The notes under the pieces are model-generated. The model saw only the letters and a list, made by a program, of their open reading frames with translations, did not search any database and was not told the origin of the DNA. The position numbers were made by a program, and so were the translations under genes. Shown one piece after another: positions 11,459 through 21,141 of a stretch of 30,905 nt of DNA. The DNA comes from a virus (Duplodnaviria > Caudoviricetes), in IMG/VR virus record IMGVR_UViG_3300033067_000044, positions 1-30,905 of that record; one strand, written 5' to 3'. Numbering within the stretch: the first letter of the stretch is position 1; each line of letters starts with the position of its first letter.

Positions 11459-11680
11459 ATGAACACTTCAACATACATCACAGACATCAAGGCCAAAGCC
11501 GAAGCTGCTGGCTTCAATATGGCAGAGGTCAGCCGTAAAGCCGAGATTGACCAAGCGCAAGTCTCTCGGTGGATTTCAGGCAAGACAGTTCCATTGGTGT
11601 CATCCGTGGACAAGCTCAAGGCTGCGCTGGACGAGCTAATCGCACAGCGTATTGCACAGCTCACCAAGGACTCAGCATGA
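11459..11680 (+). CDS. Cro/XRE-like HTH regulator
   Basis: NMAEVSRKAEIDQAQVSRWISGKTVP is a typical XRE HTH; 73 aa; no SD upstream. Confidence 0.8.
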   Translation: MNTSTYITDIKAKAEAAGFNMAEVSRKAEIDQAQVSRWISGKTVPLVSSVDKLKAALDELIAQRIAQLTKDSA

Positions 11681-12144
11681 TTCGCGTCATGGGCGTGGAC
11701 ATTGGTGCTGCTGGCGCTTTCTCCTTGTACGTCAATGGCAAGTTCGAGCGTGTAATTGATATGCCTTGCGTTGAGGTCATTCGTGGTGGCAAGAAAAAGA
11801 ACCACATCTCTGCACAAGGTGTGGCTGCTGCCATCAAGGAATTGAATCCAACACACGCAGTGGTGGAGAAGGTCGGCGCAATGCCCAACCAAGGCGTGAC
11901 TTCGATGTTCGCGTTTGGTCGTGCTGCTGGAATCATTGAAGGTGCATTGGCTGCTCTCAATGTGCCAGTGACGTACGTCACACCACAAGCGTGGATGAAG
12001 ACAACGCAATGCGGCAAAGGCAAGGATGCAATTCGTCATCGCTGCATGGAGCTGCACCCAGAGCATCAGCAACTGTTTGCGCGAGTGAAGGACAGTGGCA
12101 GATCGGATGCCACGATGATTGCTTATTACGGAAGCAAACTATGA
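11677..12144 (+). CDS. RuvC-like Holliday junction resolvase
   Basis: Start ATG 11677 (ATGA overlap); VMGVDIG, VVEKV, GVTSMFAFG, VTPQAW and RSDATMIA motifs. Confidence 0.85.
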   Translation: MIRVMGVDIGAAGAFSLYVNGKFERVIDMPCVEVIRGGKKKNHISAQGVAAAIKELNPTHAVVEKVGAMPNQGVTSMFAFGRAAGIIEGALAALNVPVTYVTPQAWMKTTQCGKGKDAIRHRCMELHPEHQQLFARVKDSGRSDATMIAYYGSKL

Positions 12145-14785: not shown

Positions 14786-16822
14786 ATGCAAGCCGAACAA
14801 ATAGCAAAGGCGCTAGGCAACGCGAAGAAGGTCAATGGGAGCTGGTTAGCGTCATGCCCACTGCCTACGCATGGGCAAGGCAACGGTGACAAGAATCCAT
14901 CACTCTCAATCACTGATGGCCCTGACAGCAAACCGCTGTTCAAGTGCCATGGTGGGTGCGATCAGCATGATGTCTTCCAAGCCATTAGGGATTACGGATT
15001 GTTGCCAGACTTGGAGCCACGCGCAGAACTGTTAGCGTCAATCAAGCCAATCCAGCAGACAACGCTGGAGCAGGAGTGGCACTACACGGATGAGGACGGT
15101 GTGACGCTGTTCATCAAGCAGCGTTACAAGACGTATGACGCGAAGGGTAAGACGTATAAGCAACTCAGGGTGGACGAGCAGGGGCGTAGACACGCAACCA
15201 TCACTGGTGCGAAGATTGTCCCGTACAACTTGCCAGAGGTGGAGCAAGCCAGAGTCAACAACCGAACCGTATTCCTGACGGAAGGCGAGAAGGCTGCTGA
15301 CGCGCTCAAGTCAATCGGTGTCTGTGCGACTTGTACCCATCAAGGTGCAAGCAGCTTCCCTGAAGATGCAATCCAGTACTTCTCAGGGCTGAACGTGGTC
15401 ATCCTGCCAGACAACGACAAGGTTGGTTGGGAGTTTGCGAAGAAAGCGGTCAAGGCCATCAAAAACGTGACGAACAGCATCCGAGTCGTTGACTTGCCAC
15501 TGGAAGACATCAAGGAAGATGCTTATGAGTACGTGAACAGGTACGGTTACGACAAGCAGGACTTGGCAGCAATCACGAAGAAGGCTGAGAAGATCAGCAG
15601 CGAAGATGACGTAACGATTCCTGAACGCTTCATCCAAGCAGAGGAAAAAGCAACAGAGCCGCAGCCAACGCTAGAGCTTGGTACGTCAACCATCCAAACA
15701 CAACGTCAACCATTCAAGATTGAACAGCTAGACGACATCGACGACGAGCCTGTGGAGTGGCTCATTGAAGGTGTCATTCCCAAAAAGGCTTTCGTAGCAC
15801 TGTACGCACCACCAGCGAGCTTCAAGTCATTCGTGGCATTGGACATTGCGGAGTGTATTGCCACGGGCAGGGAATTCCTGACTAAAGAAGTCAAGCATCA
15901 AGGTGCAGTTCTTTACATTGCCGGTGAAGGTCACGGTGGTATCGGTGCGCGTATCAAGGCCATGAAGAAGCATCACAACACGCCAGCCGGTGCGCCTGTC
16001 TTCTTTCTACGCAAGCAAATCAACCTGCGAAGCAGCGCCACTGACATCCAAGACCTGATTCAAGCCGTGGATGACATCCAAGCAACCCACGATATTCAGT
16101 TTGAGTTGGTAGTGATTGACACATTAGCCAGAGCCTTTGGTGGTGGCAATGAGAACGCCAGTGAGGACATGGGAGCCTTCATCACAGCAGCTGGTGCAAT
16201 CCAAGGAAGATACAACTGCGCATTGCTAGTCGTCCACCACGCTGGTAAGGATGCCACCAAGGGATTGCGTGGACATTCAAGCCTATTAGGTGCAGTGGAC
16301 ACGGAATTGGAAATCATCCGCATTGAGGACGCGCCAAAAGGAATCTTGCACATCAGCAAGCAAAAGGACGGTGAGGACGGACAGAGGTACGGATTCCAGA
16401 TGATTACGGTGGAGTTATCCACAACACATTTGGGATTTGATTCTGTAAGCTCATTAGCCGTGGAAGTGGACAATGAGATGAATGTGAATCAAGCTAGAGG
16501 ACAAGCGCAACCACCAGACAGGACAGGCGGTGGAAGGAACCAACAACTGGCGCTCAACTGTCTGCACAGTGCCATCAAGAAGTTCGGGATGATGGAGAAC
16601 ATTGACGGCAAGAGAAACAAAGCAATCAAGTTGGACCAATGGAGGGACGAGTTCAAGGCAAAACTTGGCAGCGATGTGGAGCCACAAACATTCACGAAAG
16701 CATGGGCAAGGGTAAAACTTGGACTCAGTGAACTCGAAAAGGTTGAGATTCACAACGATTGGTGTTGGGCAATCTATGCTGAGAACGATGGTTCAGGTAC
16801 TGTGATTCCATTCAGTAAATGA
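14786..16822 (+). CDS. primase-helicase (Zn-binding + TOPRIM + RepA/AAA_25-type helicase)
   Basis: CPxxxH...CHGGC, TEGEKAADA, LPDNDKVG, Walker A-like APPASFKS, Walker B VVIDTLAR, VVHHAGK and RGHSSL. Confidence 0.9.
   Translation: MQAEQIAKALGNAKKVNGSWLASCPLPTHGQGNGDKNPSLSITDGPDSKPLFKCHGGCDQHDVFQAIRDYGLLPDLEPRAELLASIKPIQQTTLEQEWHYTDEDGVTLFIKQRYKTYDAKGKTYKQLRVDEQGRRHATITGAKIVPYNLPEVEQARVNNRTVFLTEGEKAADALKSIGVCATCTHQGASSFPEDAIQYFSGLNVVILPDNDKVGWEFAKKAVKAIKNVTNSIRVVDLPLEDIKEDAYEYVNRYGYDKQDLAAITKKAEKISSEDDVTIPERFIQAEEKATEPQPTLELGTSTIQTQRQPFKIEQLDDIDDEPVEWLIEGVIPKKAFVALYAPPASFKSFVALDIAECIATGREFLTKEVKHQGAVLYIAGEGHGGIGARIKAMKKHHNTPAGAPVFFLRKQINLRSSATDIQDLIQAVDDIQATHDIQFELVVIDTLARAFGGGNENASEDMGAFITAAGAIQGRYNCALLVVHHAGKDATKGLRGHSSLLGAVDTELEIIRIEDAPKGILHISKQKDGEDGQRYGFQMITVELSTTHLGFDSVSSLAVEVDNEMNVNQARGQAQPPDRTGGGRNQQLALNCLHSAIKKFGMMENIDGKRNKAIKLDQWRDEFKAKLGSDVEPQTFTKAWARVKLGLSELEKVEIHNDWCWAIYAENDGSGTVIPFSK
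16415..16423 (+). promoter_or_regulatory. consensus DnaA box inside the primase-helicase gene
   Basis: Exact TTATCCACA; function not shown. Confidence 0.35.
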
Positions 16823-17000: not shown

Positions 17001-17675
17001 GTGGCAACTAGGAACATAAAAAAGAAGGTGGAGCAGCCGAGTATTCCTTCGGACCCTTTTGAGTTGTTTATGCGAAGCAAGTTGATTGAATTGATTAACG
17101 TCAAACAACAGCATGAGCAGAAGTGGGGAGTTGAAAGGATTATTGGTTTGGTGGATGAGGGGTTTCGTACCAAGGTCTGGCAACAGAACGAAAGAATCTT
17201 CTTGGCGCAGAAGCAGCGTGATGAAGTCAGGTTGGCAAAGGCAGTGGATGGGATGAAGAAGGCTTATGCGGCACTGGATGCGTGGGCTGTGGAGCATGGC
17301 GTAAGCCAGTCTCCGCGTATTAAGCATTGCCAACATCTGATGGCTGACGGGTCAATCATGGTGGTTGTGGAGACTTACGAGGACGCGATGCTCTTTGACC
17401 AGATGATGGGGCATGATGACAAGCGTCACATCTGGTGCATGGAAGAGCTTGAGCTGGTGATGAACGCTGAGGTGGTCAAGGAAACTATGGCGCTGAAGCG
17501 TCAGTATCCACAAGCTCAGATGGTGAGGCTTGATAAACCACCGACAAAGTTTCCTGAAGGTGGGAAGACAGGGCTTGATGACATGGTTGGAGATGATGGA
17601 ATATTAGACGGCTCTCGCGCTCCAAAGGTGTTTGATACAAATACAGTCAAGAAGGCAATGCAAAAAGGCCTCTAG
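17001..17675 (+). CDS. hypothetical protein
   Basis: 224 aa, GTG start after AAGGA; EQKWGVERI motif. Confidence 0.7.
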   Translation: MATRNIKKKVEQPSIPSDPFELFMRSKLIELINVKQQHEQKWGVERIIGLVDEGFRTKVWQQNERIFLAQKQRDEVRLAKAVDGMKKAYAALDAWAVEHGVSQSPRIKHCQHLMADGSIMVVVETYEDAMLFDQMMGHDDKRHIWCMEELELVMNAEVVKETMALKRQYPQAQMVRLDKPPTKFPEGGKTGLDDMVGDDGILDGSRAPKVFDTNTVKKAMQKGL

Positions 17676-17767: not shown

Positions 17768-18202
17768 ATGGCTGGTAACAAAAAGAAGGTTCACGACATG
17801 GCAATGCTTGATACGTTGCCGAAGGAGCAACTTGCCAATATGTTTGAGGCTGGAATGTCTGAAACCCGCATCTGCGTTCAACTTGGTGTAAGTAAGCGGG
17901 CACTAACTTCGTGGCTAGACCTTCCCGAGAACGAGGGCTTCCTCTCACGCGTACGCGCGAGGGCTGCCGATCATCTCGTGGCACAGACCATCGAAATCGC
18001 CGATGAGACGGACATTGCAGAGGTTAACAAAGCTCGTTTACGCGTCCAAACGCGCCAATGGGTAGCTGAACGCTGGAATCCAGCAGCGTACGCACAGAAC
18101 AAGATGCCGAGCGTTACGGTCAATCTGGCTAACTTGCGGCTTGATGCGCTGCGACATGGCGAGTTCATCGAGGCTGAGTTACCCACAGACAAACTGAGCT
18201 AA
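17768..18202 (+). CDS. terS: terminase small subunit
   Basis: N-terminal HTH; ARAADHLVAQTIEIAD...KARLRVQTRQWVAERWNP..Y resembles Sf6-type TerS; SD AGGAG; upstream of terL. Confidence 0.8.
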   Translation: MAGNKKKVHDMAMLDTLPKEQLANMFEAGMSETRICVQLGVSKRALTSWLDLPENEGFLSRVRARAADHLVAQTIEIADETDIAEVNKARLRVQTRQWVAERWNPAAYAQNKMPSVTVNLANLRLDALRHGEFIEAELPTDKLS

Positions 18203-18276
18203 GTTGTCCAAGTTATCCACAGTCGTCTTGATTTGTTGCAGCGATGCAACACAATCCATGTATAGGCTGTGGGCAA
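18179..18276. promoter_or_regulatory. DnaA-box cluster with central palindrome
   Basis: TTACCCACA 18179-18187, TTATCCACA 18213-18221, inverted TGTGGGCAA 18268-18276; TGTTGCA-gcga-TGCAACA 18234-18251. Confidence 0.55.
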
Positions 18277-18286
18277 CACTGAAATA

Positions 18287-18314
18287 ACTTTACATAATGG
18301 ACATTGTATAAAGT
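18287..18314 (-). other. dif-like XerC/XerD recombination site
   Basis: Minus strand ACTTTATACAA-TGTCCA-TTATGTAAAGT; 11-6-11 layout; right arm matches the E. coli XerD arm TTATGTTAAAT at 9/11. Confidence 0.7.
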
Positions 18315-18520
18315 ACGTACACGCTTTAGTATTCACTCTGCATCTAGGCAAGGACTGTGCCAGCCTGACCCGCCCTTGACCCCCCCGTAGGGGCGTGTGG
18401 CGGGGCGGCTGCTACAGACGCAAGCCCACACCTACCAAAAAATAATTTAATAACGCACCCCCTGCCACCCCCTTATTAAAGCAATGCTCAAAAAAATTTA
18501 AAAAATTACGGCACAATCCC

Positions 18521-18550
18521 CACATGACTAAAGAATCAACACCAAAAGAA
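18521..18550 (+). repeat. 30-bp direct repeat, copy 1 (MTase start)
   Basis: CACATGACTAAAGAATCAACACCAAAAGAA, identical to 19636-19665. Confidence 0.95.
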
Positions 18551-19642
18551 ACCACCATTATTCATGGCGACTGCTTGGAGAAGCTAAAAGAGTTGCCAGA
18601 TAACAGCGTAGACAGCATAGTGACTGACCCGCCTTACGGTCTTTCATTCATGGGCAAGAAGTGGGACTATGACGTTCCAAGCGAAGATATATGGCGCGAG
18701 TGCTTCCGAGTGCTAAAGCATGGCGGTCATCTTCTTTCATTCGCGGGGACACGCACACAGCACCGAATGGCTGTTCGTATCGAAGACGCTGGCTTTGAAA
18801 TCCGAGACATGATTGCTTGGGTTTACGGCTCTGGGTTTCCGAAGTCTCACAACCTGAAAGACGAATGGCAGGGATGGGGAACAGCCTTGAAGCCTGCACT
18901 GGAGCCAATCACCGTAGCGCGTAAGCCACTAATCGGTACAGTTGCGGCCAATGTGCTTGAGCATGGCACAGGGGCTTTGAATATTGATGGTTGTAGGGTT
19001 GGCGTATCTTCAGACGACCCTAATCACAGGAATCAGCTTGACAACAACAGCTCAGAAAAGTCAATGTTTGGTATTGGCGGAACAGGTTGTTTAGGCTCAG
19101 GCCGCTGGCCAGCCAACCTAATCCACGATGGAAGCGATGAGGTGCTCAATGGGTTTCCTGTGACTGGGCCAAGCAAGGTTCAAGCAAGAAATCAACAAGA
19201 GCGTAGAGATCAGCCATCTAAAGGGTTTGAATATGCAAGAACTGGCGTAATGGGGCATAACGACAGCGGTGGCAGCGCAGCCCGCTTCTTCTACTGCGCC
19301 AAGGCCAGCAAGAAAGATCGTGATGAAGGGCTTGAGGATTTTACGCCAGCCAAGACCAACGATGGCCGAAAGTTTGACGCAGACAACGCTTATCAAAGAG
19401 GCGCAACACTTCGCGCCAACGTCCACCCAACAGTCAAACCAACCGACCTGATGCGCTACCTGTGCCGCTTGGTAACTCCACCAAACGGAATTGTTCTCGA
19501 CCCTTTTATGGGAAGCGGCTCCACGGGTAAGGCTGCGCGTCTTGAGGGCTTCAACTTCATTGGCATTGAGCGCGAGGCTGAGTATGTTGAAATCGCCAAG
19601 GCTCGTATTGACGCAGCTATCAAGGTAGACTTGTTCACATGA
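18524..19642 (+). CDS. orphan DNA methyltransferase (N4-C/N6-A, beta class)
   Basis: DSIVTDPPYG (motif IV) precedes HPTVKP and VLDPFMGSGSTG (motif I); no adjacent REase. Confidence 0.92.
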   Translation: MTKESTPKETTIIHGDCLEKLKELPDNSVDSIVTDPPYGLSFMGKKWDYDVPSEDIWRECFRVLKHGGHLLSFAGTRTQHRMAVRIEDAGFEIRDMIAWVYGSGFPKSHNLKDEWQGWGTALKPALEPITVARKPLIGTVAANVLEHGTGALNIDGCRVGVSSDDPNHRNQLDNNSSEKSMFGIGGTGCLGSGRWPANLIHDGSDEVLNGFPVTGPSKVQARNQQERRDQPSKGFEYARTGVMGHNDSGGSAARFFYCAKASKKDRDEGLEDFTPAKTNDGRKFDADNAYQRGATLRANVHPTVKPTDLMRYLCRLVTPPNGIVLDPFMGSGSTGKAARLEGFNFIGIEREAEYVEIAKARIDAAIKVDLFT

Positions 19643-19665
19643 CTAAAGAATCAACACCAAAAGAA
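19636..19665 (+). repeat. 30-bp direct repeat, copy 2 (terL start)
   Basis: Identical to 18521-18550; both encode MTKESTPKE. Confidence 0.95.
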
Positions 19666-21141
19666 CCAAAGAAGAAGCTGCACCCAGACACGCAGGAGCT
19701 GGTGGACAACGCGATTAAGAAGCAAGAGGAAAAGATCGCAGCAAACCCTTTTGTGGCTTTCACGGCTCGCTACCGCAACAACCCCGTGTTGTTTGTCAAG
19801 GAAGTCCTGAACACCACGCCTGATGCTTGGCAAGAGACGATGCTCAACCACATCGCCAAGGGTGAGCGAAGAATCAGCGTCCGAAGTGGTCACGGAGTTG
19901 GTAAGTCAACAGGCGCTTCATGGGCAATCATCTGGTATCTCTTACTGCGTTACCCCGTCAAGGTCGTTGTCACAGCCCCCACGTCTAGCCAACTGTATGA
20001 CGCGCTTTTCGCGGAATTGAAGCGATGGGTCAAGGAGTTACCACCGACTTTGAGAGATATGCTTGAAGTCAAGCAAGACCGTATCGAGGTTAAGGAAGCC
20101 CAAACCGAAGCCTTTGTGTCAGCGCGTACATCCCGCGCCGAGCAACCCGAAGCACTGCAAGGTGTCCACAGCGAGAACGTGATGCTGATTGGGGATGAGG
20201 CTTCCGGTATTCCTGAACAGGTCTTCGAGGCTGCTGCTGGTTCAATGTCCGGCCACAACGCTGTGACCCTACTTTTGGGCAACCCCGTCCGAAGCTCAGG
20301 CTTCTTCTACGACACCCACAACCGTCTGTCAGGCGATTGGGTGACGATGAAGGTTTCTTGCGTGGACTCGCCACGAGTTTCAGAAGCCTACGTTGAGGAG
20401 ATGAAAGCTCGCTACGGCGAGGAATCAAACGCATATCGGATTCGCGTCCTTGGTGAATTCCCCCGTTCTGACGACGACACCGTAATTCCAATGGAGCTGC
20501 TGGAACTTGCCAAGCACCGAGATGTTGAGGCCAGCCAACACGCAAAGCTGATATGGGGTTTGGACGTTGCTCGCTTTGGTGGCGATAGGTCTGCTCTGGC
20601 CAAGCGCCAAGGCAATGCACTGGTGGAGCCAATCAAGACTTGGAAGAACTTGGACTTGATGCAACTCACCGGCGCAGTCGTTGCCGAGTGGGAAGCCCTG
20701 CCATCCAGCCAACGCCCACATGAAATCTTGGTGGACTCGATTGGTCTTGGCGCTGGCGTAGTTGACCGACTGCGTGAGTTGGGTTTGCCTGTTCGTGGCA
20801 TCAACGTGTCTGAGTCGCCAGCGATGGGACAGACTTACAAGAACTTACGCGCCGAGCTTTGGTACAAAACCAAGGCTTGGTTTGAGGCTCGTGACTGCCG
20901 TATCCCTTCAGACGAGGAGCTGGTGGCTGAATTGGCCACAGTGCGTTACTTCTTCACGTCCAACGGCAAGATTCAGATCGAGTCCAAGGATGACATCAGG
21001 AAACGCGGATTGCGCTCCCCCGACAAGGCTGATTCGCTTGTACTGACGTTTGCTACCGATGCCGCGATTGGTATGTTCGGCGCTAACACTGCGCAGCAAT
21101 GGTCAAAGCCGCTGCGCCGTAATGTGTCTAGAGTTGCATAA
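19639..21141 (+). CDS. terL: terminase large subunit
   Basis: Walker A SGHGVGKS, Walker B LIGDEAS, GNP coupling motif, nuclease GLDVARFGGD and SPDKAD. Confidence 0.93.
   Translation: MTKESTPKEPKKKLHPDTQELVDNAIKKQEEKIAANPFVAFTARYRNNPVLFVKEVLNTTPDAWQETMLNHIAKGERRISVRSGHGVGKSTGASWAIIWYLLLRYPVKVVVTAPTSSQLYDALFAELKRWVKELPPTLRDMLEVKQDRIEVKEAQTEAFVSARTSRAEQPEALQGVHSENVMLIGDEASGIPEQVFEAAAGSMSGHNAVTLLLGNPVRSSGFFYDTHNRLSGDWVTMKVSCVDSPRVSEAYVEEMKARYGEESNAYRIRVLGEFPRSDDDTVIPMELLELAKHRDVEASQHAKLIWGLDVARFGGDRSALAKRQGNALVEPIKTWKNLDLMQLTGAVVAEWEALPSSQRPHEILVDSIGLGAGVVDRLRELGLPVRGINVSESPAMGQTYKNLRAELWYKTKAWFEARDCRIPSDEELVAELATVRYFFTSNGKIQIESKDDIRKRGLRSPDKADSLVLTFATDAAIGMFGANTAQQWSKPLRRNVSRVA

Follow-up and report, generated by a model that had tools for sequence, protein, structure and literature searches.

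A conserved dif-like site beside the small terminase gene of aquatic tailed phages, probably recombined by host XerCD

The window, i.e., the whole stretch of DNA analysed here, is a whole virus contig of 30,905 bases with a podophage-like gene layout. Its packaging region contains the gene of an Sf6 gp1-like terminase small subunit (terS, 17768..18202, plus strand; phrog_1482, PF20901, 37% identity to the terS of Sf6/HK620), a DNA methyltransferase gene (18524..19642, plus strand; phrog_67, PF01555) and the gene of the terminase large subunit (terL, 19639..21141, plus strand; 56% identical to the terL of phiM5). Portal, scaffold and capsid genes follow downstream of terL, and upstream of terS lie genes for a primase-helicase (14786..16822, plus strand; AAA_25, weak Toprim), an exonuclease, a RuvC-like Holliday junction resolvase (11677..12144, plus strand; phrog_1770) and an HTH protein that PHROGs classifies as repressor-like. 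No DNA polymerase was recognised in the window with PHROGs or Pfam. Likewise, neither an integrase nor a resolvase was found among 47 window ORFs compared with PHROGs, 39 of which were also compared with Pfam, as expected from the first-pass annotation of this DNA, which had seen no integrase.

A dif-like core of 11-6-11 architecture, ACTTTATACAA-TGTCCA-TTATGTAAAGT, is located on the minus strand at 18287..18314, 84 nt past the terS stop codon. It had been placed in the terS-terL gap; its coordinates, strand and sequence are correct, but the methyltransferase gene separates it from terL. The predicted XerC arm ACTTTATACAA occupies positions 18304..18314, the 6-bp spacer TGTCCA 18298..18303 and the predicted XerD arm TTATGTAAAGT 18287..18297, all on the minus strand. 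The arms are complementary at 9/11 positions and, relative to E. coli dif as printed in PMC3603311, the XerD arm agrees at 9/11 and the spacer at 4/6 positions, all as first reported. On the other hand, the XerC arm, which had been described as divergent, is only one or two bases away from arms common in the genus Limnohabitans: it has one mismatch to the host arm ACTTTATACGA and two to the commonest host arm. The XerD arm exactly matches one of two XerD arms common in these hosts, and the spacer departs at positions 4-5 from TGTATA, the main host spacer. Searching both strands of the window with a generic dif pattern (up to two mismatches) returned this place only (chance mean 0.13), and the Comamonadaceae-type dif pattern matched once, at the site (chance mean 0.01); the scan with dif patterns that had been recommended, betaproteobacterial type included, leaves the site as the sole match. 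Palindromy of 9/11 is common, being reached at 14 window positions. In addition, a 13-2-13 palindrome is present at the site, and a weak promoter-like match overlaps the XerD arm (2 such matches found vs 0.9 expected).

The flanks of the core carry further features. A DnaA-box-like 9-mer lies 10-14 nt from the XerD arm (18268..18276, minus strand), with two mismatches here and a mostly canonical sequence in relatives; it is followed by a perfect copy, TTATCCACA, at 65-69 nt (18213..18221, plus strand) and by a third DnaA-box-like 9-mer (18179..18187, plus strand) within the 3′ end of terS. A C-run followed by G-runs (18380..18409, plus strand), the only C6 or longer run in the window, is the presumed genome-end or packaging signal. 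The slot past this run, which holds the methyltransferase gene in the window (18524-19642), is variable: relatives have nothing there, other small genes or a resolvase, and a methyltransferase-type ORF is absent from the site-terL interval of three complete relatives. The ORF at 17001-17675 was considered as an Xer activator and rejected, having no family and no Atlas match and being missing from most other dif loci tested.

The conservation check after terS that the first-pass annotation had advised was carried out on the best 80 of 122 terS relatives in IMG/VR. The site is kept in 79 of them, and the 80th contig ends inside the site. In these 79 relatives the XerD arm is invariant except for one A/T column, and the flanks drift; this set alone is unbiased with regard to arm conservation, the scan patterns used elsewhere having fixed the XerD arm. 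Across lineages the XerD arm is better kept than the XerC arm and the spacer is the most variable element, the same order as that given for dif-like sites in the available part of PMC5790767. The arms match different host dif types in different phage clades, and the orientation of the site flips relative to terL with the XerC/XerD asymmetry retained. Five relatives are complete genomes of 36-38 kb, two of them with end repeats. Each contains one site and none encodes a tyrosine recombinase (PF00589), which for the relatives answers negatively the suggestion that the missing part of the genome might hide an integrase. In three of these genomes, 63 ORFs without a counterpart in the window yielded neither a recombinase nor a partition family, and no ParA/ParB-type partition gene was recognised either in these ORFs or in the window. 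Outside this group, comparison of the site region with 50,697 phage records by blastn gave chance matches only, and no such site was seen near terS in the cultured relatives P26218, Venkman, HTVC010P, HTVC106P (7 kb covered) and phiM5 or in the metagenomic DSL-LC05. A locus with 88% terL identity (L101) has no site in the 2.6 kb upstream and a different gene order.

In phage C72C1 (OQ984150; L560:19397-19424), which additionally encodes a Sak-like annealing protein, a canonical-arm site with spacer CGTCCA lies 72 nt past terS, ahead of a C-run. Another dif-like site (L347:2501-2528) is found between terL and portal of a 39-kb phage of another terL family.

The dif pattern was matched in 86/101 Limnohabitans-genus genomes, with the spacer TGTATA in about 62 of 88 listed sites (counted by eye), and one listed variant differs from the phage site at three bases, two of them in the spacer. 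These host sites behave as chromosomal dif. KOPS in five genomes point toward the site from both sides (left, 20 forward and 4 reverse; right, 2 and 21), GC skew drops across the site in 5/5, XerD is above cut-off in 5/5, and the distance from dnaA to the site amounts to 42-53% of the chromosome in the four single-contig genomes. Converging KOPS, the mark of a chromosomal terminus, are seen at the host sites and not at the phage site. The phage site shares with the chromosomal dif/XerCD/FtsK system the 11-6-11 core, an identical XerD arm, an XerC arm one or two bases off, a non-coding location and the single copy, but differs in lying on a 36-38 kb phage beside terS, with a changed spacer, no adjoining KOPS and a DnaA-box array. 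The same dif type occurs in 54/401 genomes of the family, which points to a likely host in the Comamonadaceae, probably Limnohabitans-like. Scanning species genomes for terL returned four short contigs, whose bins carry the labels Polynucleobacter, Burkholderiaceae, Limnohabitans and Opitutae; the closest MAG copy (95% terL) is in the Polynucleobacter-labelled bin. Within the Polynucleobacter-labelled genus the dif pattern is found in 10/151 genomes, no more than by chance or in the control; the genus may use a different dif or lack one. Given that the arms track host dif types, the site could serve as a cheap host predictor for uncultured phages.

The position of the site relative to the packaging genes was scored at 241 loci: it follows terS in 143 and precedes it in 26, in either orientation. 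A C6 run is found 3′ of the site, in the direction of terL transcription, at 116/119 distinct loci (median 81 nt) and 5′ of it at none. In phiM5 (terL 56%), the annotation places the end of a 357-bp terminal repeat 35 nt before terL, and the only long C-run of this phage, a C9 at base 315 of the repeat, is near the repeat's right end. By analogy with this one annotated record, from a phage that has an integrase, no dif and a candidate terS as its repeat ORF, the C-run may mark the right end of the terminal repeat. If the window ends are homologous to those of phiM5, the site would lie within the repeat, giving two direct copies per virion DNA, and the resolvase gene of the sister phages described below would lie a short way in from the left end, as an early gene. 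At the 26/241 loci where the site precedes terS, a pac within terS would leave the site unduplicated. Contig right ends fall within 400 nt of terS in 15/37 cases (p 4e-5), and contig ends fall within 400 nt of the site in 13/33 cases upstream (p 0.01) and 6/14 downstream (p 0.05), a weak signal, as the ends are scattered and both C-runs and shared sequence act as confounders. All 24 read runs found were contig-only data; the four analysed gave no molecule ends, and no loose end at the site is among those listed. The terS unitig of run X23 has a repeat-like depth of 136 vs 59-75 for six others, that of X24 does not (29 vs 17-33), and these depths were not used.

In place of the site, MW202879 (terL 68%) has the gene of a 222-aa serine resolvase directly after an Sf6-like terS. 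The protein belongs to PF00239, and its nearest solved structures include gamma-delta and Tn3 resolvase. At 80 loci found with the MW202879 terL, the resolvase loci score at most 4.2 on the dif matrix, on which shuffled sequence reaches 1.7 and the window 31.9, and the dif loci are devoid of resolvase. Considering all 198 terL loci at 45% identity or more, 130 (window included) carry dif, 17 the resolvase, none both and 23, mostly distant, neither; the slot is unseen in 28. The resolvase was found at one of 333 other loci, again without dif, and its 11 close relatives all (11/11) lie beside terS/terL of this clade, without dif. At most resolvase loci read, one or two res-like palindromes are present between the terS end and the C-run, which is the dif position, and the gene often starts about 130-150 nt past the C-run behind a promoter-like stretch (by eye). 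In a terL tree of 56 representatives the resolvase occurs in two clades with one dif phage nested among them, which, with weak inner support, would correspond to about three independent changes. Compared with the Tn3/gamma-delta resolvase-res systems, the sister phages have a PF00239 gene and upstream palindromes in common; however, their gene is in the packaging region with no transposase seen, and it is an alternative occupant of the dif slot, absent from the window. That the terS-terL slot of this terL clade holds either dif or a small serine resolvase, never both, is new here; our literature search among open-access papers returned no account of tailed phages with either element next to terS. 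The swap, a natural experiment, points to resolution, not integration.

The 9-mers next to the site form an array. TTATCCACA-type 9-mers occupy the XerD side, about 10-14, 50-54, 65-69 and 85-95 nt from the arm; the array turns with the site in 77/81 distinct relatives and 63/77 scan loci. We take the 9-mer to be a DnaA box from the DnaA-box consensus and from its position, TTATCCACA lying just upstream of dnaA in 5/5 host-type genomes. Window-wide, DnaA 9-mers are not enriched (9 vs 6.3), and the box spacing of the phage was not found near host dnaA. No DnaA boxes were found at host dif in five genomes, and strict XerD-side boxes occur in 0/78 canonical-arm loci. KOPS aimed at the XerD arm were found within 1 kb in 0/81 relatives, and within 150 nt in 7/78 canonical-arm loci. 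Three KOPS in the window and two in the five complete relatives all point toward the XerD side; they are at least 2 kb off and follow the G-rich coding strand, and we do not count them as support. The boxes may serve as accessory sequences, as an origin or in both roles. DnaA-box-like 9-mers are also seen around the gene in the terS position of Venkman (L556: 52, 365, 38614) and HTVC106P (L559: 5448, 6281), which have no dif site.

We consider it probable that host XerCD recombines phage with phage at this site, be it to close genomes or to resolve dimers. The use of host XerCD, as proposed in the first-pass annotation, is supported by the conservation of the site, its match to the host dif arms and the absence of a recombinase from complete relatives, and the lack of a recognised partition gene speaks more for a role in every infection than for a stably kept plasmid prophage. 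As to the step, the chances seem about even that XerCD closes the injected genome to form a unit circle, in all likelihood soon after entry into the cell. Host XerC and XerD would bind and cleave the dif core; the presumed terminal repeat would put one copy of the site at each end of the linear genome, and recombination of the two copies would yield the unit circle. The changed spacer would permit phage-phage recombination and hinder fusion with the chromosome, the DnaA-box array would help to assemble or activate the reaction or start replication of the new circle, and the RuvC-like enzyme could finish a half-done Xer reaction. Genome closing is favoured by the tie of the site to terS and the C-run and by the absence of recognised partition genes. 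In P1, loxP is close to pac. Cre-loxP closes the linear, terminally repeated virion DNA of that phage, according to the available part of PMC2841073. Site-specific closing of virion DNA would be common to both systems, the terminal repeat being deduced here from phiM5; P1 differs in that the present phages would use a host recombinase, or a serine resolvase in the sisters, with no phage tyrosine recombinase in five complete relatives. Against genome closing stand the state of freshly injected linear DNA, which is not supercoiled, the count of KOPS toward the XerD arm (0/81, though dif needs FtsK) and the terminal repeat, which is borrowed from one 56%-identical phage, phiM5. The loci with the site ahead of terS, the 23 loci with neither dif nor resolvase, the small number of independent swaps and the closest copy's place in a Polynucleobacter-labelled bin also count against it. 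The question bears on how tailed phages without an integrase, an Erf/Sak-type annealing protein or a polymerase close and copy their DNA.

A close rival to genome closing is dimer resolution, a real possibility even if not the one we would expect: host XerCD, or the resolvase in the sisters, would resolve dimers of a circular, theta-replicating or plasmid-like genome, with the boxes as origin or as cer/psi-like accessory sequences. It is favoured by the need for supercoiling of cer/psi and of Tn3-type resolvases. The latter work on supercoiled circles, and small serine resolvases prefer such circles with direct repeats. The same substrate is given for accessory-dependent Xer sites in the available part of bioRxiv 10.64898/2026.02.23.706985. 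That part also describes cer (ColE1) and psi (pSC101) as borrowing host XerCD through a dif-like core with a fixed array of host-protein boxes, an arrangement that the phage site would share; the phage boxes differ in being DnaA-type and on the XerD side instead of PepA/ArgR/ArcA sequences, and their carrier is a tailed phage without a recognised partition system. The fixed XerD-side offsets of the boxes, their turning with the site and their absence at host dif in 5 genomes fit dimer resolution. So do the 9-mers of Venkman and HTVC106P near terS without dif, a replicating island of genome G202 that carries the same spacer, and the lack of a recognised DNA polymerase, owing to which host replication proteins are likely used. 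In cer and psi the PepA/ArgR/ArcA sequences are on the XerC side. Resolving dimers, on the other hand, does not account for the closeness of the site to terS and the C-run across several terL families; partition genes were not recognised in the window or in 63 ORFs of three complete relatives, canonical-arm sites are without boxes (0/78 strict, XerD side), and multimers are useful as packaging substrates during lytic growth.

It is unlikely that the site binds proteins without recombining, as a decoy titrating XerCD and DnaA and thereby stalling host replication and division, as a packaging platform, or as an operator or promoter. Both dif and DnaA boxes are host cell-cycle signals, and the weak promoter-like match over the XerD arm and the 13-2-13 palindrome would suit such a role; yet the orientation flips relative to terL with the XerC/XerD asymmetry kept, the arms follow host dif types by clade, a pure decoy gains nothing by avoiding the host spacer, and a recombinase substitutes for the site in sister phages.

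Going further than phage-phage recombination by host XerCD, we tentatively suggest, as a speculation, that many aquatic tailed phages have a dedicated genome-closing slot in the terminal repeat, filled interchangeably by a host-matched dif with a private spacer or by a serine resolvase with res, and that in Comamonadaceae phages XerD is activated by phased DnaA boxes in place of FtsK/KOPS, which would tie circularisation to the onset of replication. An Xer reaction aided by DnaA, if real, would represent a new means of activating XerD. Xer use is documented for plasmids and non-tailed phages in the available parts of PMC12715192, PMC3025954 and bioRxiv 10.64898/2026.02.23.706985, and a host-XerCD route in tailed phages, if true, would add a further kind of carrier to the plasmids and small non-tailed phages that hijack Xer.

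Integration at host dif, the other use of XerCD put forward in the first pass, fares worse, and we regard it as very unlikely. The phage would behave as an IMEX, with a XerC-first exchange on three matching spacer bases that replication or its own RuvC-like enzyme would finish. The IMEX described in the available parts of PMC12715192 and PMC3025954 (CTXphi, VGJphi, TLC and dif-type double jelly-roll phages) set a precedent among non-tailed phages, and the present phage resembles them in having no integrase and a dif-like site whose arms are nearly identical to those of the host; it also has HTH repressor-like and RuvC-like genes. Unlike them, it is a tailed dsDNA phage with no host-dif junction found, no recognised XafT-like partner and a spacer that avoids the host's. 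A relaxed Comamonadaceae-type viral scan gave at least 120 matches, of which 80 loci were taken and 79 scored. Among the matches listed, 69/79 scored sites lie within 1 kb of a terminase gene, in both orientations and in at least three terL families, with 16 spacers, none of them TGTATA. In a canonical-arm scan (80 loci among the matches listed, tallied by hand), 36/63 non-TGTATA sites vs 1/17 TGTATA sites are beside terS/terL (Fisher p 1.9e-4). Over all groups, among the matches listed, 184 terminase-adjacent loci (not deduplicated) have 45 spacers, and TGTATA accounts for 0/184. The window spacer opens with TGT like the host's, as do those of 73/184 terminase-adjacent loci among the matches listed; 111/184 have no TGT start and 183/184 no ATA end (one does), and pairing of the spacer with host dif on one side is not kept across the family. 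The spacer TGTGCA is common to two host genomes and two phage loci, which counts against full avoidance. Recombining Xer pairs of Acinetobacter plasmids have a common central region in the available part of PMC5790767, which fits a self-with-self use.

Searches for integrated copies agree with the spacers. No XerD arm followed by a DnaA box was found in 127 genus genomes (0/127), and among 401 family genomes one close terL was found, on a 3-kb contig, and none on a long contig. Eight metagenome matches combine phage arm and host spacer with no protein of this phage within 2.5 kb, and neither they nor four viral matches with the host spacer have a protein of this phage or a terminase nearby. 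Prophages ending at chromosomal dif, which we had been advised to look for, were not found in the genome and metagenome samples examined; these are samples, in which absence is not proof. Moreover, the same slot in sister phages is filled by a small resolvase, a type of enzyme that does not serve integration. Lysogeny is not necessarily implied by the presence of a dif-like site in a phage.

Host-type arms with TGTATA were seen in just two plus two viral contigs, all of them rolling-circle Rep plus repressor elements (by Pfam for two contigs, by eye for two). Such elements (L209, L210, L579, L580, L289) end at a Comamonadaceae-type dif with host spacer and are inovirus-like dif integrators of freshwater betaproteobacteria; they are a positive control for the appearance of dif integration here.

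Finally, the reading of the site as a chance look-alike, for which one could cite the 14 palindromes of the same shape (9/11) in the window, is refuted practically beyond doubt by its conservation in 79/80 relatives, with the arms kept while the flanks drift, and by expected means of 0.01-0.13.

Several other sites were noted. The Limnohabitans-genus genome G202 has a second dif-like site, with spacer TGTCCA (G202:C2:116078; L198:19579-19606), which looked like a prophage but was rejected as such: it sits at a distance from chromosomal dif in an island of about 10 kb that encodes an integrase-like ORF and a DUF927/Toprim primase and may be a satellite with the same trick. Two viral contigs of 37.6 kb and 18.5 kb (L372:2501-2528, L386:2501-2528) carry an exact enterobacterial dif (TGTATA) just past an Rz-like spanin gene and are tailed prophages, which may adjoin chromosomal dif or make use of it. 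Eight canonical-arm sites have non-host spacers (L348, L371, L381, L388, L391, L395, L405, L409), and four of them adjoin a lambda O-like replication initiator gene instead of a recognised terminase. In MW202483 (L558:1363-1465), two symmetric 11-6-11 palindromes resembling doubled XerD arms lie upstream of the terminase genes. The complete relative G002 (L164:18157-19500, L165:3-1151) has a PBECR5 nuclease domain in the gene that ends the ejection-protein block.
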